A stretch of 64,000 nt of DNA from NCBI GenBank assembly GCA_041650805.1, contig JBAZKM010000006.1:17837-81836 (forward strand). Reading direction: 5' to 3'. Source of the stretch: Candidatus Omnitrophota bacterium (GTDB taxonomy: Bacteria; Omnitrophota; Gorgyraeia; 2-01-FULL-45-10). The notes under the pieces were generated by a model. The model ran no database searches, was not told the DNA's origin, and worked only from the letters and a program-made list of their open reading frames with translations. Shown here piece by piece: positions 4,519 to 60,690 of this stretch. Position 1 is the first letter of the stretch. Every line of letters starts with the position of its first letter. The position numbers were made by a program, and so were the translations under genes.

Positions 4519-5118
4519 ATGGATATGAACGGGATGAAAGAAGAGGTCGCAAAGATGGCCGGCACGGTATATTCGATGCTCGGTCTTATAGAGAAGGGTT
4601 TTATGGAGAATAAGCCGGAACCGCTCGCTGCCGCAATGAAGGAAGAGAAGGCGATAAATGGCATGGAGAAGGAGTTGACAGGCAATATCCTCGTCCTTTC
4701 GAAGGCATCGGGCAAATGCAGGGGGGAACTGGCGGTGCTGGCGGGCGTCATCGAGATGCTTGAGAGGATGGGGGACGAAGCGTTGAACCTGGTAGAGCGC
4801 ATAGAGATAAAGGTCGAAGAGCGGCTCCTCTTCAGCGACCTGGGCGTCGCGCAGTTCAATGAGACGTACGACGCCATGAAGCGCTCGGTAGAGATGATGG
4901 TCGAATTCCTGAAGTCGCGGAAGCCGGCGCTTAAAGAACGGGTCATCGATAACGGTTTCCATGTCAAGGACCTAGTTGAGCGTTACCGCAGGGAGCACAT
5001 GGACCGCTTCGTTAAAGGGTTGTGCACACCGATGTCGGCGAACATGTATTTCGACATGCTCGATTTCACGGGAAATCTCGCCAGGCATTCTTCGAATATA
5101 GTCAAACTTTTTGAATAA
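4519..5118 (+). CDS. PhoU/DUF47-like helical repeat protein
   Basis: Soluble, helical, charged-residue repeats reminiscent of the PhoU domain. Weak assignment. Confidence 0.35.
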   Translation: MDMNGMKEEVAKMAGTVYSMLGLIEKGFMENKPEPLAAAMKEEKAINGMEKELTGNILVLSKASGKCRGELAVLAGVIEMLERMGDEALNLVERIEIKVEERLLFSDLGVAQFNETYDAMKRSVEMMVEFLKSRKPALKERVIDNGFHVKDLVERYRREHMDRFVKGLCTPMSANMYFDMLDFTGNLARHSSNIVKLFE

Positions 5119-5740
5119 AATGCGATATCCGAAACTGAGAGAATTGAAAGAAGCGATAACGGCCCTGATATCCGGGCCTTATACTACGAAGTTCCCGCGC
5201 AAACCCCACATACCGGCGAAGAGGTTCAGGGGTAAGCCGGAATATTCGAATGACGGATGCATCGCCTGCGGCGCCTGTTCGCTGGTATGCCCGGCGAGGG
5301 CGATCGAGGCGAGGGATACCGTGACCAGGACGAAGGCCGTGCGGAAGATGATATTGCACCTGGACGAATGCCACTATTGCGGGCAATGCAGCGCCCTCTG
5401 TACCACAAAGGAAGATACCCCGCCGGGTATAAGGCATACCACGGAATTCGACCTTGCCGGTTTTGACAGGGCGACCATGGTCTCCCAGACGGACGAGAAA
5501 GAGCTTGCGCTATGCGAGGTCTGCGGCGATGCGATAACCGCGAAGGCACATCTAGAATGGCTCGCAAAGCGCCTGGGGCCGCTCGCCTTTTCCAACCCCA
5601 ACCTCTTCCTCTCGTCTATGAAGAGCATGAACTTTGCCGGAGACGTATCGAGGATCGCCAAAGAGGATCTCGTCCGGAGCGACCGGATAAAGGTGATCTG
5701 TGCGAAGTGCAGAAGAAGAGCGACGCTTGAAAAATTTTAA
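5111..5740 (+). CDS. 4Fe-4S dicluster ferredoxin-domain protein (NuoI/HycF/MbhN-like) with a C-terminal Cys-rich extension
   Basis: Two CxxCxxCxxxCP-type motifs (CIACGACSLVCP; CHYCGQCSALC). Additional CxxC...CxxC pair at the C-terminus. Confidence 0.65.
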   Translation: MNKMRYPKLRELKEAITALISGPYTTKFPRKPHIPAKRFRGKPEYSNDGCIACGACSLVCPARAIEARDTVTRTKAVRKMILHLDECHYCGQCSALCTTKEDTPPGIRHTTEFDLAGFDRATMVSQTDEKELALCEVCGDAITAKAHLEWLAKRLGPLAFSNPNLFLSSMKSMNFAGDVSRIAKEDLVRSDRIKVICAKCRRRATLEKF

Positions 5741-6224
5741 AGTCCTCTCCTCGCCCGAATTGAGATCGACCCTGAAAGACAGGATAAAAGGAAGGCCCGC
5801 CATAGTAGGGATAGGTAATATAATGCGCGGCGACGACGGCCTCGGGCCGCGCCTGGTGGAGCTCCTTAAGGCGCGGGCGGTCAATGCGCGCCTCTTCGAT
5901 TGCGGCACCGCGCCGGAAAATTATATCTTTCCTATACTATCTACGGATTGTAATACGATCATACTGGTCGACGCGGCCGATTTCAGCGAAAGGGCCGGCG
6001 ACATCAATATCTTTGACCTGGAAGAGATATCAAAAGTGAGCTTCTCGACGCATAATCCTTCTCCCCGTCTCCTGACGGATCTCCTGAGGACTGGAAGGGA
6101 CAATCTTGACATATTTGTCATCTCCGTACAGCCTAAGACGACAACTCTCGGGGAGGGTATAAGCCGGGAGGTCAATGACGGCCTGGATCTCCTGGCAGAC
6201 ATATTCCAGGAGATACTCAAATAG
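5700..6224 (+). CDS. hycI: Hydrogenase maturation protease (HycI/HyaD family)
   Basis: Motif VGIGNIMRGDDGLGPRLVELL, plus ILVDAADF (metal-binding Asp). True start may be the internal TTG near 5759, since ATG 5700 overlaps the ferredoxin by 40 nt. Confidence 0.7.
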   Translation: MRSAEEERRLKNFKVLSSPELRSTLKDRIKGRPAIVGIGNIMRGDDGLGPRLVELLKARAVNARLFDCGTAPENYIFPILSTDCNTIILVDAADFSERAGDINIFDLEEISKVSFSTHNPSPRLLTDLLRTGRDNLDIFVISVQPKTTTLGEGISREVNDGLDLLADIFQEILK

Positions 6225-6263
6225 CTGTCAGCTTTCAGCTTTTTAAATAATAAGACCATCGAA

Positions 6264-7724
6264 ATGAATAAGAGACGCTTCCAGCCGATCATAGAAGATA
6301 TAAAAGATCCTGCCCCGCCGGAAACTCTCTTTGCCGGAATAAAAAATAATCCGTACAGCTTCTTTCTCGACAGCTCATCCGACAGCGGGAAACTGGGGCG
6401 CTTCTCATTTTTCGGGTGTGACCCGTTCCTCATCTTCAGCAGTAAAGGCACTGCCATAACTTTGGAACGGACAGGGATAGGCCGGGAACATTTCAGCGCC
6501 GACCCGTTCATGGCGTTAAGAGATATCCTGAAAAGGTACGAAACGGCCGGGGCGGACGGCCTCCCGTTCACGTCCGGCGGCGTCGGATATTTTGCGTATG
6601 ATATGAAGGAATTTGTCGAGCGCTTACCGGCGAGCTCAGTCGACGACCTCGGCATACCCGACTGCATGATCGGTTTTTATGACAGGGTGGTGATATACGA
6701 TAACCTTGAGGGCAGATGCCGCATAGCGTCTTCCGGGCTGCCGGAGACGGACCAGTCCAGGCGTAACAGGCGTGCCGTAGGCCGGATAAAAGAATTTAAA
6801 GACATTATTGACACGGATGAACACGGATCAAAAACGGATATGCGCGGATCAAGTTACGGGCGCGGCCATCATTCTCCTTTACTGAAGTCGAACTTCTCTT
6901 TCGGATCTTATATCGAGGCGATAAGGAGGGCGAAGGAGTATATAAAGAAGGGCGATATCTACCAGGTGAACCTGTCGCAAAGGTTCGAGGCGGGGCTTGA
7001 TCACGATCCGTTCGAGCTTTATTCGCGGCTCAGGAGAGTAAGCCCGGCCCCCTTTTCCGCATACCTCGGCTTCGGCGGGGTCACTGTGGCGAGCTCATCG
7101 CCGGAGAGGTTCCTGATGAAACGGGGCGGCTATATAGAGACGAGGCCGATAAAGGGGACCCGCCCGCGCGGTGATGACACCGCGGAAGACGCGCGGCTGG
7201 AAGGCGAACTGCTTGCGAGCGCCAAGGACCGCGCAGAGCATGTTATGATCGTGGACCTGGAGCGGAATGACCTGGGTAGGATATGCGAATACGGCTCGAT
7301 AAGGCCGACCGAGTTCGTTATCCTGGAGAAGTACGCCACGGTATCCCATCTTGTATCGACGGTCAGCGGAAGACTGAGGGACGGTATCGACCCGATCGAT
7401 TGCCTCCTGGCAACGTTCCCCGGCGGTTCCATAACCGGCGCGCCCAAGATACGGTCCATGGAGATAATAGATGAGCTCGAACCGGTGAGGCGTTCGGTCT
7501 ATACCGGCTCGATAGGTTACATATCATTCGACGGGAATATGGATACATCGATAGCCATACGGACCTTTCTCATCAAGGGCGATAAGGCCTACTTCCAGGT
7601 AGGCGGCGGGATAGTCGCCGATTCCGACCCGGAGAGCGAATACCTCGAGACGCTCGACAAGGCGAAGGGGATGTTCCGGGCCCTCGGGGTCGCCATGCCT
7701 AAACGGGAGCATCTATGCGTATGA
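6264..7724 (+). CDS. pabB: Aminodeoxychorismate synthase component I (chorismate-binding enzyme, PabB/TrpE family)
   Basis: Chorismate-binding domain motifs (GDIYQVNLSQRF, SSSPERFL, TRPIKGT, VDLERNDL, GGGIVADSDPESEY). PabB is preferred because pabC is adjacent. Confidence 0.8.
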   Translation: MNKRRFQPIIEDIKDPAPPETLFAGIKNNPYSFFLDSSSDSGKLGRFSFFGCDPFLIFSSKGTAITLERTGIGREHFSADPFMALRDILKRYETAGADGLPFTSGGVGYFAYDMKEFVERLPASSVDDLGIPDCMIGFYDRVVIYDNLEGRCRIASSGLPETDQSRRNRRAVGRIKEFKDIIDTDEHGSKTDMRGSSYGRGHHSPLLKSNFSFGSYIEAIRRAKEYIKKGDIYQVNLSQRFEAGLDHDPFELYSRLRRVSPAPFSAYLGFGGVTVASSSPERFLMKRGGYIETRPIKGTRPRGDDTAEDARLEGELLASAKDRAEHVMIVDLERNDLGRICEYGSIRPTEFVILEKYATVSHLVSTVSGRLRDGIDPIDCLLATFPGGSITGAPKIRSMEIIDELEPVRRSVYTGSIGYISFDGNMDTSIAIRTFLIKGDKAYFQVGGGIVADSDPESEYLETLDKAKGMFRALGVAMPKREHLCV

Positions 7725-8590
7725 AGAACGGGATGGTCTGGATGAACGGCCGGTTCGTCGATATCGATAAGGCAAAGGTCCCGATATCCGACAGGGGTTT
7801 CTTATACGGCGACGGGGTCTTCGAGACGATGCGCTCATACGCGGGCGTCATATTCCGGCTCGACCGGCATCTGGACAGGTTATTCGGGGCATTCCGCGTC
7901 ATGAAGATGGACCCGCCGTACGCCAAAAAATATCTCCGCGGCATAGCTTACAGGGTGCTGAAGGCGAACAACCTGAAGAGCGCATATATACGCATGGCGG
8001 TGACCAGGGGGGAAGGCCGGTTCGGCATAGGATACAGGGACATCTTCACGCCCAACACGGTCGTCGTAGCAAAAGAGTTCGAAGAGTACCCGCGCTGGAT
8101 GCACAAAAGAGGCATAAGCGCGAAGGTGGTCGATCTCAGGCAGAACGAGCTCTCCCCGCTATCCGGCATAAAGTCGCTCAACTTCATGCCCTACATACTC
8201 GCGCGCCTACACGCAAAGGAAGAGGGTTTCGACGAAGCTATCCTGGCAAATACAAAAGGGCATATCGCCGAGGCGGCGACGAGCAATATCTTCATTGTCA
8301 GAGGATACTGCCTCATAACGCCTTCCCTCGAAAGCGGGATACTCCCGGGCATAACCCGCGGCGCAGTGATCGAGATAGCGAAACGGCTTAAGATGCGCGT
8401 CATAGAGAAGCCCGTGACGAGGGGCGAGCTCCTTGGCGCCGACGAGGTCTTTCTCACAAATTCGCTCGCCGAGGTCCTGCCCGTCCGTGCCGTCGATTCG
8501 AAGCGGATAGGGAAGGGCGCCCCCGGCGACGTCACCCGCCTCCTCCGCATCGCTTACCAGAAGCAGGTCATCGCAGAGACGGTGCTGTAG
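7715..8590 (+). CDS. pabC: Aminodeoxychorismate lyase / class IV (branched-chain/D-amino acid) aminotransferase
   Basis: Fold-type IV PLP enzyme motifs (GDGVFET, MAVTRGEG, EVFLTNS). Overlaps the pabB stop. Confidence 0.7.
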   Translation: MRMKNGMVWMNGRFVDIDKAKVPISDRGFLYGDGVFETMRSYAGVIFRLDRHLDRLFGAFRVMKMDPPYAKKYLRGIAYRVLKANNLKSAYIRMAVTRGEGRFGIGYRDIFTPNTVVVAKEFEEYPRWMHKRGISAKVVDLRQNELSPLSGIKSLNFMPYILARLHAKEEGFDEAILANTKGHIAEAATSNIFIVRGYCLITPSLESGILPGITRGAVIEIAKRLKMRVIEKPVTRGELLGADEVFLTNSLAEVLPVRAVDSKRIGKGAPGDVTRLLRIAYQKQVIAETVL

Positions 8591-24075: not shown

Positions 24076-24487
24076 GGGGGTGACAGGCATCGACCTAGGT
24101 AAATACGGTAAGGGTGGCATGTAGAGGTTGCTAGGAGGCCTCTTTAAACACCTGGCAAAAATCAAATGCTGACAACGTAAAAGTGCCAGCTACGGTAAAC
24201 GAGCTTCTGGCTACCATGCAAGTGGTACCGGGGCCCGTTCTACCACAAGCGTTACCTTTATAAGGTAACCCGTTAACCGGCCTCTTCCTGCGGGGCCGGA
24301 TTAGCGTCGCTAGCAGGATGGTCTCTCCGGTTTATCCTTCGGCCGGTGAGATGAGATCGTCAAAGGATACCTTCGCGAAATTCCTCCTATTGAAGTTCGG
24401 GAAGGGAACTCAAAGATTAGGATAAACATGTAGATGCCTTTATTGTGGTATCTGGGGACGCGAGTTCGAATCTCGCCACCTCCACCA
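24076..24487 (+). ncRNA. ssrA: tmRNA (SsrA), one-piece
   Basis: Starts GGGGGUGACAGG...CGAC. Ends with a tRNA-like T-arm/acceptor: GGACGCGAGUUCGAAUCUCGCCACCUCCACCA. Lies immediately downstream of smpB. Confidence 0.85.
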
Positions 24488-31362: not shown

Positions 31363-31376
31363 TTCTGTGATATAAT

Positions 31377-31453
31377 CGGGGCGTAGCGCAGTTGGCTAGC
31401 GCGCTTGGTTTGGGACCAAGAGGTCCTCGGTTCGAATCCGAGCGCCCCGACCA
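31377..31453 (+). tRNA. tRNA-Pro (anticodon TGG), CCA encoded
   Basis: CGGGGCG acceptor pairs with CGCCCCG. Anticodon stem-loop CUUGG-UUUGGGA-CCAAG. T-loop GGTTCGAATCC. Confidence 0.85.
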
Positions 31454-31761
31454 TAAGCCTGCCATTTGTTTACGTGTAGGCAGGCTATCCCCGCGAGTAT
31501 ATCGGAAATTTCGGAGAAATTTCCGATATGATTACGAGCGGGGATGATCTCACCGGCTGATGACGGTGATGAAAGTCACCTTCATCTTCTGGTCAGACGG
31601 ATTTCGAAGAAATCCGGCAGCCGCTTAGAAGATGGGGAAGCAGAGCCGGTAGGAAGTAGTCTTGTTCTTCCGAAAGCACTCTGCGAATTTCGTATATCGC
31701 AGGGCGATATCCGAAATTCAATGTTTCGCTTTCGGAAGGAAATTTGCAGAGCAAATTTCAC
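31454..31761 (+). other. 308-nt highly structured intergenic region between tRNA-Pro and tRNA-Arg (unassigned ncRNA or recombination/regulatory element)
   Basis: Several long hairpins. One has a perfect 13-bp palindrome (ATATCGGAAATTT-cggag-AAATTTCCGATAT) nested inside an ATCCCCGC/GCGGGGAT stem. Others include AGCCTGCC/GGCAGGCT and CGGATTTC/GAAATCCG. Confidence 0.4.
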
Positions 31762-31838
31762 GTCCCTGTAGCTCAGCTGGATAGAGCATCTGCCTTCTAA
31801 GCAGAGGGTCGCCTGTTCGAATCAGGCCAGGGACGCCA
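31762..31838 (+). tRNA. tRNA-Arg (anticodon TCT), CCA encoded
   Basis: GTCCCTG/CAGGGAC acceptor. Anticodon loop CUUCUAA. T-loop GTTCGAATC. Confidence 0.85.
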
Positions 31839-31986
31839 TCCGCCTTCGCAATCAACGCGGAAAGCGGCAAGGTGCTTCGGCGGATTTTATCCGCCATAGC
31901 CATCATGCTATAATATGCTGAAGGCGACGGCGGATGTGCCCGCCGAAGCATTCTGTTGCGCTCCGTTGAATGCGAAGGCGGGCCAC
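31839..31986 (+). repeat. Copy A of a ~148-nt MITE-like structured repeat with imperfect terminal inverted repeats, abutting the tRNA-Arg CCA end
   Basis: About 95% identical to 58920-59067. Termini TCCGCCTTCGCAATCAACG ... CGTTGAATGCGAAGGCGG are inverted. Internal long stem GCTTCGGCGG...CCGCCGAAGC. Contains TATAAT. Confidence 0.8.
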
Positions 31987-31996
31987 AAATAGGTGT

Positions 31997-32242
31997 ATGC
32001 ACTACGTTTACATCCTAAAAAGCCTTAAAGTAAGAGATAAAATATACGTTGGTATGACCAATAACCTGAACCGTCGTCTCAAAGAGCACGATGAAGCAGC
32101 AAGTGATAATTACACATATCGCCATCGTCCCTGGAAACTCGAAACATATATTTCATTTCAAAGTAATTTGGCTGCTAAGGAATTCGAAGCTTATTTAAAA
32201 ACAGGCTCAGGTAGAGCATTTATTAGACGACATCTTGTTTAA
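31997..32242 (+). CDS. Small GIY-YIG nuclease-domain protein (UPF0213/YhbQ-like)
   Basis: Motifs YVYILKS...YVGMTNNLNRRLKEH (GIY...YIG...R...H/E). Starts 10 nt after repeat copy A. Confidence 0.7.
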   Translation: MHYVYILKSLKVRDKIYVGMTNNLNRRLKEHDEAASDNYTYRHRPWKLETYISFQSNLAAKEFEAYLKTGSGRAFIRRHLV

Positions 32243-32410: not shown

Positions 32411-33418
32411 ATGAGATTACGAAAATTGAAGTATGCTTTGGTTGCTTTAGCGGTGCTCTTCATATGCGGAGACGTCTGCGCGTTCACGTTCACGAAAGTC
32501 GACAAGGAGGAGCGCAAAAAGCAGGAGATAGACGATCTCCAGAAGAGGTTCGAATGGTGGCCGACCGACGCCCAGCCGCAACCGGTGAAGGACGAGAAGC
32601 GCGGCGGATACTGGTGGATGCCGCGCACCCCGGGCACGACGAGACCGTGGGGTAACCGCGGTTATATTTACGTATATAAGATCATATACGATTACAAAGA
32701 GGAAGAGCTACCGCCGGCTAAGGCCTCGGAGCCGCGCCCGTCGCTCCTCATCAAGAAGATCATAAAGAACGTCAAGGTCTACTTCGATTTCGATAAGGCG
32801 GAACTTCGCGACGATGCCGTATCGGTGCTGGAAGGGGCCGTCGCCTCTTTGCGCCGGAACCCGGAGACGAGCATCCTGATCACCGGTAACTGCGATATCC
32901 GCGGATCCGAACAGTATAACGAGAAACTCGGCCGGCGCCGCGGCGACAGCGTAAAGAAGTTCATGCTCGACAGCGGTGTCCCGGAGAAGAGGGTGATGAT
33001 CGTAAGCCGCGGTAAGCTCGATGCCATAGCGCCGGTGACGGACCTCGCCGGCATGGCAAAAGACAGGAATGCCCAGTTCATGATAGCAGAGGTGGAAGAG
33101 GTCATGATCCCTGCGCCGAGCACGCAGGGTGAGGCCGAAGGGGCCGTCCCGTCCCAGGAGGCGGAACAGATCCCCGAAGGTGCGACGCAGATCGAGGAAG
33201 GGAAGTATCTCATAGAAAAGGAAGAGATAGTCGAGTCGGAGGTCAAGGTCTCCACTAAGACGTACGTCACGAAGAAGGGCGATACGCTCTGGAAGATCGC
33301 AGAGAGGGAGCTCGGCGAGGGCAGAAGGTGGAATACAATATACGAGCTCAATAAGGATAAGATCAAGAACCCGAATAAGCTGAGCGCAGGGAAGAGGCTC
33401 GTTATTCCGGTCGAATAG
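32411..33418 (+). CDS. OmpA-family peptidoglycan-binding protein with C-terminal LysM domain, secreted
   Basis: Signal peptide. OmpA_C-like motif (YFDFDKAELRDDAVSVLE...NCDIRGSEQYNEKLGRRRGDSV). LysM (YVTKKGDTLWKIAE...GKRLVIP). GAGGTGGG RBS. Confidence 0.75.
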   Translation: MRLRKLKYALVALAVLFICGDVCAFTFTKVDKEERKKQEIDDLQKRFEWWPTDAQPQPVKDEKRGGYWWMPRTPGTTRPWGNRGYIYVYKIIYDYKEEELPPAKASEPRPSLLIKKIIKNVKVYFDFDKAELRDDAVSVLEGAVASLRRNPETSILITGNCDIRGSEQYNEKLGRRRGDSVKKFMLDSGVPEKRVMIVSRGKLDAIAPVTDLAGMAKDRNAQFMIAEVEEVMIPAPSTQGEAEGAVPSQEAEQIPEGATQIEEGKYLIEKEEIVESEVKVSTKTYVTKKGDTLWKIAERELGEGRRWNTIYELNKDKIKNPNKLSAGKRLVIPVE

Positions 33419-33424
33419 TTTTGC

Positions 33425-33497
33425 GGTGGGCGTAGCTCAGTCCGCCTTCGCAATCAACGCGTAATAGATTAGGTGCTTCGGCGGATTTCGCACGAAT
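33425..33497 (+). repeat. 16-nt duplicate of the tRNA-His 5' end (33425-33440) followed by a ~57-nt 5' fragment of the MITE-like repeat (partial copy B)
   Basis: ggtgggcgtagctcag is identical to tRNA-His positions 1-16. It is followed by tccgccttcgcaatcaacgcg...ggtgcttcggcggattt, matching the first part of copies A and C. Confidence 0.7.
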
Positions 33498-33505
33498 AGT
33501 TTTAT

Positions 33506-33584
33506 GGTGGGCGTAGCTCAGCTTGGATAGAGCACCTGGCTGTGGCCCAGGGTGTCGCCGGTTCAAATCCGGTCGCCTACCCCA
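33506..33584 (+). tRNA. tRNA-His (anticodon GTG) with G-1 and discriminator C, CCA encoded
   Basis: G-1 followed by GTGGGCG paired with CGCCTAC (one G-U). Anticodon loop CUGUGGC. T-loop GGTTCAAATCC. Confidence 0.8.
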
Positions 33585-33887: not shown

Positions 33888-35489
33888 TTAGGCGAGCCCT
33901 GCGGTTAATGTCTGCCACATCTTTTTCTGCTTATTCCAGGATATTTCTCTGGTGATCTCATTCATTTTGTATTCGGGGATCAGTTGGATGATGTTATTAT
34001 CTGAAAAGAGAATCTCTTCCTGTATGCTAGGCGCGAGCATCAGCATATTTAGAAGAAGATACATTTTAGTGTGCGTTATATTGAGCCAATCAGCCACCTG
34101 TTTTAAATCTTTAGCCTTGCCGTCTTCAAGTAATCCTTGTATTTGATACGCTAATATTAAAAATTGGCGCAGCTTAGGCTCCTTTAGGATCGCCACAGCT
34201 TTAGGTGTCTCACGTACAAGGCTTGTTGCCAAATCTACATTGAATTCGTAAATTTTAGTAGAGCTTTGCAGTGTTATAAAGACCTTTTTACTCTCGGCTT
34301 CATAAAGTACAACTTTTACTAAGGCGAGAATCGTTTCACGTTGCCTCTCAAATGGCAGGTTCTCCCACGTTCCTGTAGCTATGTTTCTGTTGTCGGAGAT
34401 CTGGCGCAGACACAGCATGATCTGATTCTCGAATCTTAATGCGTTAACGGTCTTTGAAGGGCAATTCTCATAGCCTCGCTTTTGCGCGTTTAAACAAACG
34501 TAGTAAAAGTATTTCCATTTATGATTTTTGGTAGAGTATGCGTATATCATAGAGCTATCGCATGGCTTGCAGCGGACTATTTGGCTTAATAGGCCGATGT
34601 TTTTATGCGGTTTTACTTTTTTCTCGCGTCTATTCTCGTCCAAAATAGTTTGGACCTTATTAAAGACTTCTTCGCTGATTATCGCTTCATGCTGTCCCTG
34701 GTACACCTGCTTGCCTTTGTAGTTAATCTTGCCGATATAGAGCATATTACGCAGCATTAGCTGCATGCTCGTAGCCTTAAATGGAACACCGCCTGACATC
34801 TTACCCTTCCTTAGGTATTGTTTGGTTCGATAACCCCTTTTGTTGAGGATCATGGCTACGGAAAGGAGGGAGCGTTCCTTGGTATAAAGGTCAAACATTT
34901 CTCGGATAATTCGAGCCTCAGCCTCATTGATTACGATCTTATGATTTTCCTTATCGAGGTTATAGCCTAAGGCTGGCCTACCGCCCATCCACTGGCCTTT
35001 CTTGCGCGCAGCGCCCATTTTGTCGCGTGTGCGCTCGGATATGATCTCACGCTCGAACTGTGCGAAAGAGAGCAGAATATTGAGCGTAAGTCGTCCCATT
35101 GACGTATTTGTGTTAAAATGCTGCGTTACGGATACGAAGGCTACGTTATTTTGATCAAAAAATTCCAGCAGCTTACTAAAATCGAGCAATGAGCGCGATA
35201 GTCTGTCTACTTTGTAGACCACCACGCATCCTATTTTCCCAGACTTGATGTCTATTATCAGTTTTTGCAGCGAAGGACGTTCAGTAGTTGCGCCTGAAAA
35301 CCCTGCATCGTCATAGTGATCAGCTAACGTGATCAATCCTTCGGATTTTTGGCTTAGTATATAGCTTTCTGCTGCCTCGCGCTGCGCGTCAAGCGAGGTG
35401 AATTCCTGCTCCATGCCGTCATTCGTAGAAACACGCGTATAGATGGCGCAGGGGATAGGCTTCTTATCTTGTGTTAATTTGTCATCCAT
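33888..35489 (-). CDS. Large serine recombinase (resolvase/invertase N-terminal domain, recombinase domain, zinc-ribbon)
   Basis: Catalytic N-terminus (CAIYTRVSTNDG ... YKVDRLSRSL). 533 aa. C-terminal Cys cluster (CKPCDS...C). Confidence 0.85.
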   Translation of the reverse strand: MDDKLTQDKKPIPCAIYTRVSTNDGMEQEFTSLDAQREAAESYILSQKSEGLITLADHYDDAGFSGATTERPSLQKLIIDIKSGKIGCVVVYKVDRLSRSLLDFSKLLEFFDQNNVAFVSVTQHFNTNTSMGRLTLNILLSFAQFEREIISERTRDKMGAARKKGQWMGGRPALGYNLDKENHKIVINEAEARIIREMFDLYTKERSLLSVAMILNKRGYRTKQYLRKGKMSGGVPFKATSMQLMLRNMLYIGKINYKGKQVYQGQHEAIISEEVFNKVQTILDENRREKKVKPHKNIGLLSQIVRCKPCDSSMIYAYSTKNHKWKYFYYVCLNAQKRGYENCPSKTVNALRFENQIMLCLRQISDNRNIATGTWENLPFERQRETILALVKVVLYEAESKKVFITLQSSTKIYEFNVDLATSLVRETPKAVAILKEPKLRQFLILAYQIQGLLEDGKAKDLKQVADWLNITHTKMYLLLNMLMLAPSIQEEILFSDNNIIQLIPEYKMNEITREISWNKQKKMWQTLTAGLA

Positions 35490-52563: not shown

Positions 52564-52871
52564 TATATCCACAGATAGAAGTCGTCCCGATGTTGGAAGG
52601 GGTAAATCCCGGACGTTAAAAAAGAAAAACCTTCGAGTGGGTAAGTATGCCACCGAGGGTTTTTGTGTTTTATAAGACATATACGGCTTGTAGTTTAAGC
52701 CGATAACATAATTTCACAAGTTTTTGCACCTGGCGGATTGTTTCAATGGACAGTTTCATTTGTAGTAGCAGTCCTGTGTTTCAAGGGGGAACCTGGACTT
52801 TAAAAAAGTAAAACCTTCGCTAGCCATAATTTTGTGGCTGGCGGAGGTTTTTCTATTTTGAGGAGGGCGAT

Positions 52872-53330
52872 ATGGGAAGAATAGCAGGCATAACATTAGT
52901 TATGGTATTAGCTTGTTCATTAGCTTTTGCCGAAGAAAAGTATTTGGGAAGATTAAGTACAAACAAGATTGCCTCAGATTCTACAAGTAATCCTGTTGGT
53001 CAATACGGCAGCACTGTATCGCCAACTAGTATAAATAATCCTGTAGGCCAATTTGGAAGCTCTGTAAGCCCGAATAGCGCCCGTAATTCGCTTGCTACAG
53101 ATACACCTAAGCTATATAGTCAGGATGGGCACTATTTAGGTAAGGTGAGCAGTAATACGCTAGATCCAGACTCGATAAGTAATCCTGTGGGAAGATATGG
53201 CAGTTCCGTATCTCCCGATAGCGTACATAATCCAGTAGGTCGTTATGGAAGCAGCGTCAGTTCTGAAAGCGCTAATAACCCATTAGCTACTAACGCACCG
53301 AAGATAATCTATGGAGGAAATGATGAGTAA
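52872..53330 (+). CDS. Secreted repeat protein (4 x S-NPVGxYGSSVSP-S units)
   Basis: Signal peptide, then four ~30-aa repeats with core NPVG(Q/R)YGS(T/S)VSP. Confidence 0.55.
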   Translation: MGRIAGITLVMVLACSLAFAEEKYLGRLSTNKIASDSTSNPVGQYGSTVSPTSINNPVGQFGSSVSPNSARNSLATDTPKLYSQDGHYLGKVSSNTLDPDSISNPVGRYGSSVSPDSVHNPVGRYGSSVSSESANNPLATNAPKIIYGGNDE

Positions 53331-58919: not shown

Positions 58920-59067
58920 TCCGCCTTCGCATTCAAGGCGTAAAGTGACAGAATGCTTCGGCGGATTTTATCCGCCATAGCCATCATGCTATAATATGCT
59001 GAAGGCGACGGCGGATGAGCCCGCCGAAGCATTCTGTTGCGCTCCGTTGAATGCGAAGGCGGGCCAC
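58920..59067 (+). repeat. Copy C of the ~148-nt MITE-like structured repeat
   Basis: Near-identical to 31839-31986 with about 6 substitutions. Same terminal inverted repeats. Confidence 0.8.
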
Positions 59068-59070
59068 TAA

Positions 59071-59141
59071 ACTTCGTCGGATTGACTAATAATCTCGATC
59101 GACGCATCGAAGAACACGACAAAACCTCGAGCGCACATTAA
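59071..59141 (+). pseudogene. 5'-truncated remnant of a GIY-YIG gene (homologue of 31997-32242)
   Basis: Translates to FVGLTNNLDRRIEEHDKTSSAH*, matching YVGMTNNLNRRLKEHDEAAS of the intact copy. The first ~25 codons and the start codon are absent. Confidence 0.6.
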
Positions 59142-60485: not shown

Positions 60486-60690
60486 ATGTGGGGAGGTCGT
60501 AAAGCGGCCTGAGAGTTCCGCACGCGCTCTTCAAGCGCAGAGCGGATTACCCGATGAACCTGATTCTGCTATGCCCGTCACCGGTTAGGCGGTGGTAGGG
60601 CTTCGCAGGAATCATTACTACGAAGCTCAAAGCCGGATGGCTTTGAGCGAAGTAGAATGATCTGGATAATACCAGCGGAGGGAGAGGGGG
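60486..60690 (+). ncRNA. TPP (THI-box) riboswitch with a ~95-nt insertion, upstream of thi4
   Basis: Contains GGGGAGG...CUGAGA (J3-2), ACCCGAUGAACCUGAU and AUCUGGAUAAUACCAGCGGAGGGA. A long internal hairpin interrupts the P4/P5 region. Confidence 0.6.

Follow-up and report, generated by a model that had tools for sequence, protein, structure and literature searches.

The REP elements of the Proteobacteria occur in tens to hundreds of dispersed copies, carry a GTAG-type tetranucleotide at the 5' end of the unit and, in many genomes, are accompanied by a cognate RAYT transposase (IS200/IS605-type Y1). Small palindromic elements of the MITE kind may be nested and may insert within RNA genes or beside them. 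The transcribed sequences known as 3'ETS-leuZ, the metZWV spacers and the stalks of rRNA operons are, by comparison, conserved among related species and have defined partners, and 3'ETS-leuZ of Escherichia coli is reportedly a tRNA spacer with a regulatory role. It is also general knowledge of tRNA processing that RNase P and RNase III remove the sequences that flank tRNAs and that stable stems act as barriers to exonucleases. Small palindromic repeats of the REP type are reviewed in PMC3184786.

In this study, we describe a spacer packed with hairpins that separates two tRNA genes in an uncultured Candidatus Omnitrophota bacterium, in a window (the whole stretch of DNA analysed) of 64 kb. The host operon, tRNA-Pro–tRNA-Arg(–tRNA-His), appears from comparative gene order to be ancient and normally compact. 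Omnitrophota conserve the succession queC-queE-queF-fumarase-rph-rdgB, then tRNA-Pro(UGG), tRNA-Arg(UCU) and often tRNA-His, and the order rdgB–tRNA-Pro–tRNA-Arg(–tRNA-His) also occurs in Nitrospirota. An earlier note, written from the letters of the window, had described a densely structured 308-nt spacer between tRNA-Pro and tRNA-Arg with at least five strong hairpins. Both statements are borne out, as the tRNA boundaries drawn by ARAGORN and Rfam enclose exactly this interval, and the spacer resolves into five individually significant modules. The operon segment and the modules are as follows.

31377-31453, plus strand: tRNA-Pro(UGG), the upstream boundary (ARAGORN, tgg; Rfam tRNA, 69.8 bits), with its CCA encoded.
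31454-31761, plus strand: the Pro–Arg spacer, 308 nt, non-coding, with five abutting hairpin modules joined by linkers of 0-12 nt.
31456-31486, both strands: H1, an 8-bp G+C-rich stem, AGCCTGCC / GGCAGGCT, with -14.5 kcal/mol on either strand (z = -2.9 on plus, -3.4 on minus).
31487-31545, both strands: H2, two-tier, with an outer 8-bp stem, ATCCCCGC / GCGGGGAT (z = -6.6 on plus, -7.7 on minus).
31499-31529: the inner palindrome of H2, a perfect 14-bp stem with a GGA loop, ATATCGGAAATTTC gga GAAATTTCCGATAT.
31548-31654, plus strand: H3, a branched domain (z = -4.1) with the tip hairpin CGGATTTC gaa GAAATCCG at 31597-31615.
31667-31738, both strands: H4, two-tier, with an outer 11-bp stem, CTTCCGAAAGC / GCTTTCGGAAG (z = -6.7 on plus, -8.2 on minus).
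31685-31719: the inner stem of H4, 16 bp with one mismatch and an AGG loop.
31739-31759, both strands: H5, a perfect 9-bp hairpin, GAAATTTGC aga GCAAATTTC (z = -6.6), 2 nt upstream of tRNA-Arg.
31762-31838, plus strand: tRNA-Arg(UCU), the downstream boundary (ARAGORN, tct; Rfam), with the same sequence as in the relative L084.

The nested element that the earlier note had written out is found in that very form at 31487-31545. The perfect 13-bp palindrome in its description holds when the hairpin is read with a 5-nt loop, whereas the fuller reading gives 14 bp around a loop of 3 nt. H2 and H4 have a common plan. The outer stem (8 bp in H2, 11 bp in H4) leads through an asymmetric internal loop to the inner stem (14 and 16 bp), which is capped by a purine triloop. 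Furthermore, one AAATTTC-type unit of about 23 nt recurs in variant form in four of the five modules, namely in the tips of H2 and H3, the inner stem of H4, and H5, and the changes among the variants are symmetric on both arms. The H2 tip, the H3 tip and all of H5 can be written as variants of GGAAATTT(C/GC)-RRA-(G/GC)AAATTTCC that differ by symmetric loss or gain of base pairs: the H2 unit recurs in shorter form at the H3 tip, which matches the H2 tip at 12 of 13 positions, and H5 is the H2 unit plus a symmetric G:C insertion. The inner stem of H4 contains the words of H2 in permuted order. Neither H1 nor the remainder of H3, where a weak terminator-like hairpin lies at 31565-31580, is related to this unit. 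GAAATTT/AAATTTC occurs 21 times in the 64-kb window, with six of these occurrences inside the 308 nt, and, even with palindromic pairs counted once, such clustering is very unlikely to have arisen by chance. Three GTAG tetranucleotides are also present in the spacer, at positions that are not constant relative to the AAATTTC hairpins.

Recurring words of this type may suggest an array of protein-binding palindromes in the DNA. In such an array, a dimeric DNA-binding protein would recognize the 8-bp word GAAATTTC, which is self-complementary, and its variants as operator-like sites; it might regulate tRNA-Arg(UCU) or the small GIY-YIG gene downstream, or be of the nucleoid or partition type. 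GAAATTTC occurs twice in H2, 11 bp apart, a distance of one helical turn; related half-sites are present in H3, H4 and H5, and the motif is about 40-fold enriched in the spacer. However, the palindromes extend to 14-16 bp and have unrelated outer stems around them, neither of which a binding site needs, and the half-site varies in length through symmetric changes, being shortened in H3 and lengthened in H5. The single other GAAATTTC in the window falls within an ORF, no regulator gene is adjacent, and the sites are absent from the relatives. A binding array is thus the account of the spacer to which we attach the least probability, and we consider it very unlikely.

The spacer as a whole is exceptionally well folded. 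On the plus strand it reaches -137.2 kcal/mol, compared with -87.8 +/- 5.1 in dinucleotide shuffles (z = -9.7; none of 100 shuffles reached this value), and on the minus strand -132.0 kcal/mol (z = -10.5). About 72% of its bases are paired, and among the 111 predicted pairs only seven are G-U, most of them within H3, the rest being Watson-Crick. In a GC-corrected sliding-window fold the spacer ranks among the strongest outliers of the 64-kb window, which contains six perfect hairpins (stem of at least 9 bp, loop of 3-6 nt), two of them inside the spacer. H1, H2, H4 and H5 fold equally well on either strand. H3 alone is weaker on the minus strand (-39.9 kcal/mol vs -44.8 kcal/mol on the plus, or transcribed, strand, a difference of about 5 kcal/mol), which leaves room for some constraint at the RNA level. 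As the fold is symmetric between the strands and G-U pairs are few, the spacer bears the signature of DNA palindromes rather than that of a strand-specific structured RNA.

No known RNA family was recognized in the spacer. At the gathering threshold Rfam placed no family there, and the whole window gave only tRNAs and the tmRNA. The earlier note had seen no hallmark motifs of RNase P, SRP or 6S RNA. When matches with E up to 10 were included, the spacer was hit by microRNA-precursor models only, the best non-tRNA match having 24.6 bits vs a threshold of 82; these were rejected as chance level, as such models fit generic hairpins. The tmRNA gene itself (24076-24487; Rfam, 169 bits) has an ARAGORN-predicted tag of 31 residues, ADNVKVPATVNELLATMQVVPGPVLPQALPL, which is unusually long.

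The spacer is non-coding. All of its ORFs of at least 20 aa were listed, and the 75-aa ORF at 31544-31771, which the earlier note had found unconvincing, does exist but extends into tRNA-Arg and has neither a Pfam match above threshold nor a homologue, with no word-sharing protein among 5.8 billion protein clusters. For a 51-aa ORF that enters the spacer from tRNA-Pro, an exhaustive search of 1.84 billion representatives matched one protein, and only through the first 21 residues, which are derived from the tRNA. For the 75-aa ORF, a resemblance to Hok-like type I toxins was the only Pfam signal and was rejected (Hok/gef, 14 bits vs a cut-off of 22, E = 0.039); it covers 16 residues that are encoded by the H4 palindrome.

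The spacer was compared with the orthologous spacers of relatives. RdgB, whose gene precedes the tRNAs, has its best homologues from other genomes at only about 73% identity, and among the matches listed by a scan of genome contigs with an RdgB alignment, most were from distant phyla. The closest relatives with usable contigs are L082, L084, L087 and L089, with RdgB 68-71% identical to that of the window, and their loci have the que–fumarase–rph–rdgB synteny of the window as well. The Pro–Arg spacers compared are listed here by length.

L082: 7 nt, with the tRNA pair inverted.
L087: 8 nt, compact.
L089: 10 nt, compact.
L084: 68 nt, a single hairpin.
L008: 82 nt.
L047: 268 nt, with the 3' end of tRNA-Pro duplicated.
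The window: 308 nt, five hairpins.
L003: 350 nt (4728-5077), other hairpins, z = -9.1.
L004: 578 nt, a protein-coding ORF with a ribosome-binding site.
L002: 611 nt, an ORF and duplications of tRNA-Arg fragments.

Because the spacers of the closest relatives are short, the ancestral state was compact (about 7-10 nt), and some 300 nt were gained in the lineage of the window. In other genomes the Pro–Arg spacer has expanded independently, with unrelated content. The spacer of L003, a more distant Omnitrophota-like MAG, is unrelated in sequence and has a long-range closing stem and a hairpin of the GTCATTGTGAGGAAGCGAAGC…CTCGCAATGAC type. In L002, the 5' part and the 3' part of tRNA-Arg are duplicated over 20-30 nt (7758-7776 and 8150-8170) around a hairpin-rich insert, and in L047 the 3' end of tRNA-Pro is duplicated at 7271-7293 beside a short hairpin-rich insert. 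These duplications could be relics of integrated elements or of an insertion mechanism that targets tRNAs.

Local alignment of the window spacer with the orthologous spacers of relatives (12 tests) gave no significant similarity. A marginal match to the L002 spacer (p = 0.015 before correction for the 12 tests) was rejected. As a positive control, the non-coding DNA downstream of tRNA-His can be aligned with that of L082 and L089, so the missing conservation of the spacer is not simply a matter of distance. A BLAST search of the window plus 92 loci likewise found no homologue of the spacer. A novel ncRNA co-transcribed with the tRNAs, the lead candidate of the earlier note, was there said to be refuted by a lack of conservation beyond this genome, and this lack is what we observe: the orthologous spacers either measure 7-68 nt or are unrelated, the fold is equally good on both strands, and none of the searches found a homologue.

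A functional RNA could nevertheless be derived from a transcribed spacer. RNase P and RNase III might release the 308-nt RNA, or sub-fragments of it, to act as an sRNA or a protein sponge, or the spacer might be a processing scaffold that keeps the two tRNAs apart. The very strong structure, the tight packing of the helices, which only 0-2 nt separate from one another and from the tRNAs, the slight preference of H3 for the transcribed strand and the existence of a regulatory tRNA spacer in E. coli (3'ETS-leuZ) all fit such a role, as does the probable transcription of the spacer with the tRNAs, given that it has no internal promoter and one weak terminator-like site. Against it are the both-strand symmetry of the fold with its few G-U pairs, the lack of conservation at the orthologous position in every relative examined and the absence of a homologue from the loci and collections searched. 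Moreover, tRNA processing does not require the hairpins, as close relatives do with 7-10 nt. We therefore regard a functional RNA as unlikely, albeit as the least unlikely of the alternatives to the reading given below.

The next question is whether the modules belong to a dispersed or mobile family. A BLAST search of the 64-kb window, together with about 12 kb that adjoins it in the same sample, turned up none of the modules a second time. The spacer had no match in a plasmid collection, and matches in a phage collection were confined to the tRNA-Arg portion. An exact-pattern scan with the H2 palindrome returned 0 matches in viral contigs; its single metagenome match, the marine contig L090, is unrelated and rich in GGAAATTTCC repeats, and was set aside. 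No direct repeat of at least 2 nt that could be a target-site duplication surrounds any of the hairpins or the whole spacer, attC core sites (RYYYAAC … GTTRRRY) are absent from the spacer, and neither tRNA-Pro nor tRNA-Arg nor tRNA-His has significant similarity to it on either strand. Hence the recombinase or att site that the earlier note had offered as a second candidate was not supported, there being no tRNA-fragment duplications, attC cores or target-site duplications in the spacer. The third and weakest candidate of that note, a processing element, is plausible, in that a co-transcribed spacer may either act in processing or simply be removed by it.

Directly downstream of tRNA-Arg is a hairpin of a different kind, which is associated with small GIY-YIG genes.

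31839-31986, plus strand: a near-perfect 148-nt hairpin (z = -9.5), a dispersed repeat that begins right after the CCA of tRNA-Arg.
31997-32242: a small, intact GIY-YIG gene (Pfam, E = 4e-15) downstream of the 148-nt hairpin.
33441-33488: a fragment of the 148-nt hairpin upstream of tRNA-His.
58920-59067: a second full copy of the hairpin, 94% identical and 27 kb away.
59070-59141: a GIY-YIG remnant of 23 codons, without its N-terminus, directly downstream of the second copy.

The left end of the hairpin, TCCGCCTTCGC, is common to all three copies, and its tip carries an extended -10 box, TGCTATAAT. The two full copies have nine differences, all in the left arm. A minus-strand ORF over the hairpin has no homologue and was judged spurious. 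The GIY-YIG remnant is 60% identical in protein sequence to the intact gene, whereas the adjoining hairpins are 94% identical in DNA, and the hairpin thus seems to have reached two already diverged GIY-YIG genes recently. In L084, a GIY-YIG gene with 36% identity (6079-6357) follows tRNA-Arg behind 228 nt of other hairpins. The spacer itself has no similarity to the adjacent 148-nt element.

At tRNA-His, 28 nt are directly duplicated (33413-33440 vs 33495-33522): 12 nt of upstream sequence plus the first 16 nt of the tRNA, GGTGGGCGTAGCTCAG. Between the two copies lies an insert of 54 nt that consists of pieces of the 148-nt hairpin, and the arrangement looks like the scar of an insertion in the D-arm region that kept one tRNA copy intact. 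Beyond tRNA-His and a conserved terminator region, a low-GC block (35-45% vs about 55%) extends from about 33.7 to 59 kb. It opens with a large serine recombinase on the minus strand (33888-35489) and ends in a GC step at about 58.9-59.0 kb, which is the site of the second hairpin copy and the GIY-YIG remnant; the block is probably an integrated island. Upstream of the ORF at 52872, a structured intergenic region contains a 60-nt direct repeat with 78% identity (52576-52635 vs 52763-52819).

These surroundings bear on the possibility that the spacer is the relic of an integrated element, i.e., what was left between attL and attR when an element integrated at tRNA-Pro or tRNA-Arg was deleted, or a set of nested MITEs with the outer stems of H2 and H4 as their inverted repeats. 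The tRNA cluster is clearly a hotspot of integration: a low-GC island with a serine recombinase lies downstream of tRNA-His, the 5' end of tRNA-His is duplicated around a hairpin fragment, and duplicated tRNA fragments occur in the equivalent spacers of L002 and L047. However, the spacer neither contains nor borders on a duplicated fragment of tRNA-Pro or tRNA-Arg, it has no target-site duplications around its hairpins or its ends and no attC cores, it does not resemble the neighbouring 148-nt element, and no further copies of it exist in the window and the adjoining 12 kb. The outer stems of 8 and 11 bp could pass for the inverted repeats of a MITE, but the target-site duplication that should go with them is absent. 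We consider an origin of this type improbable.

A second family of hairpins was recognized through L084, in which the 68-nt Pro–Arg spacer contains a three-tier hairpin (5702-5760) homologous to positions 60558-60618 of the window on the plus strand. A covariance model built from the L084 and window members found an inverted neighbour of the latter at 60608-60661 on the minus strand, so that the two members in the window stand head to head, like a REPIN. The family follows the plan ATTCTGC / 3x3 internal loop / GCC… / inner stem / …GGC / TTC / GCAGGAAT, and compensatory changes occur in its middle and inner stems between the two Omnitrophota genomes. The covariance-model scores are 88.8, 84.3 and 27.1 bits, and no Rfam family matches at the gathering threshold. 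The model had no match in 31454-31761.

The dispersed hairpin repeats of the window and L084 indicate that hairpin-only families do exist and do colonize the Pro–Arg spacer. By sequence comparison, the window spacer belongs to neither the 148-nt nor the ATTCTGC-type family. A more far-reaching proposal is that the spacer, the 148-nt hairpin and the ATTCTGC-type hairpins are families of one undescribed class of gene-less elements in Omnitrophota, whose target sites would be tRNA-gene flanks or the D-arm region, together with the 5' ends of small GIY-YIG genes. Such elements would perhaps be mobilized in trans by those nucleases, and their transcripts would join tRNA precursors. We give this proposal a slight chance and mention it as speculation.

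On balance, the spacer is rather more probably a young, lineage-specific cluster of palindromes, similar to REP/BIME clusters, which was amplified locally or by some other activity within a permissive tRNA-operon spacer. The units would have multiplied in place by duplication, inversion or hairpin-templated repair, or else through a transposition activity. A tRNA spacer would tolerate such insertions, which should be harmless because the spacer is excised from the precursor anyway. The spacer would be co-transcribed with both tRNAs, as we infer from their same orientation, the lack of a convincing promoter inside the spacer and the one terminator-like site found there, which is weak and not above chance. 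RNase P would then remove the spacer at the 5' end of tRNA-Arg, and the long perfect stems would be substrates of RNase III and barriers to 3'-exonucleases. The spacer is probably transcribed and then discarded during tRNA maturation, its sequence having presumably no function of its own.

As to transcription from upstream, an extended -10-like box, TGATATAAT (TGGTATAAT in L089), is present at 31368-31376 in the window, at about 4612-4620 in L087 and at about 4611-4619 in L089, i.e., 0, 2 or 11 nt upstream of the first base of tRNA-Pro in the three genomes. At a distance of 0-2 nt, the box would place a normal start within the tRNA itself, so either the box is not a promoter or the 5' end of tRNA-Pro is formed in an unusual way.

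The importance of the spacer itself is limited, as it is lineage-restricted and shows no sign of a conserved function. The rdgB–tRNA-Pro–tRNA-Arg–tRNA-His locus, on the other hand, is an insertion hotspot across Omnitrophota, where hairpin repeats of unrelated sequence, small ORFs and scars of integration gather. Of greater interest than the spacer is the possibility that hairpin elements collect at the tRNA genes of these bacteria, in some cases in linkage with small GIY-YIG genes. If these hairpin families are mobile and so linked, they would represent a novel kind of non-autonomous element, in a phylum that has been little studied, and they would add an unrecognized load on the processing of tRNA precursors.

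How closely the spacer resembles the known systems depends on the feature compared. With tRNA-operon sequences that have a function, namely 3'ETS-leuZ of E. coli, the sRNA sponges of the metZWV spacers and the RNase III stalks of rRNA operons, it shares a transcribed position beside tRNAs and long stems that RNase III could cleave, but it is absent from all relatives examined. MITEs, the Correia, RUP, BOX and ERIC elements and the Rickettsia palindromic elements are similar in being non-coding, 50-150 nt long and hairpin-forming, with outer inverted repeats. They differ in that the spacer has no target-site duplications, copy family or related autonomous element in the accessible sequence and the public collections. 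The 148-nt and ATTCTGC…GCAGGAAT repeats come from the same organisms, occupy tRNA flanks and spacers and form multi-tier hairpins with small internal loops, yet have no sequence similarity to the 308-nt spacer.

The likeness is greatest with the REP, BIME and REPIN sequences of Proteobacteria. These, too, are palindromes of about 20-40 nt that lie in extragenic positions within transcription units and cluster as related units in both orientations, with hairpins that are equal on either strand and that, as RNA, are exonuclease barriers. The differences are that the spacer units have no second copy in about 76 kb, that no transposase or RAYT gene is known nearby, that their A+T-rich core of the AAATTTC type is unrelated to known REPs, and that a place between two tRNA genes is unusual. 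The first of these is the main weakness of the comparison, as the dispersal that defines REPs and MITEs is thereby unproven for the spacer, as are membership of its units in a dispersed repeat family and their mobility. What the spacer does present is a set of short stem-loop palindromes in an extragenic position between two co-oriented tRNA genes, as expected of a REP/BIME-type cluster, and it is apparently a new and private case within the known broad class of extragenic palindromic repeat clusters.
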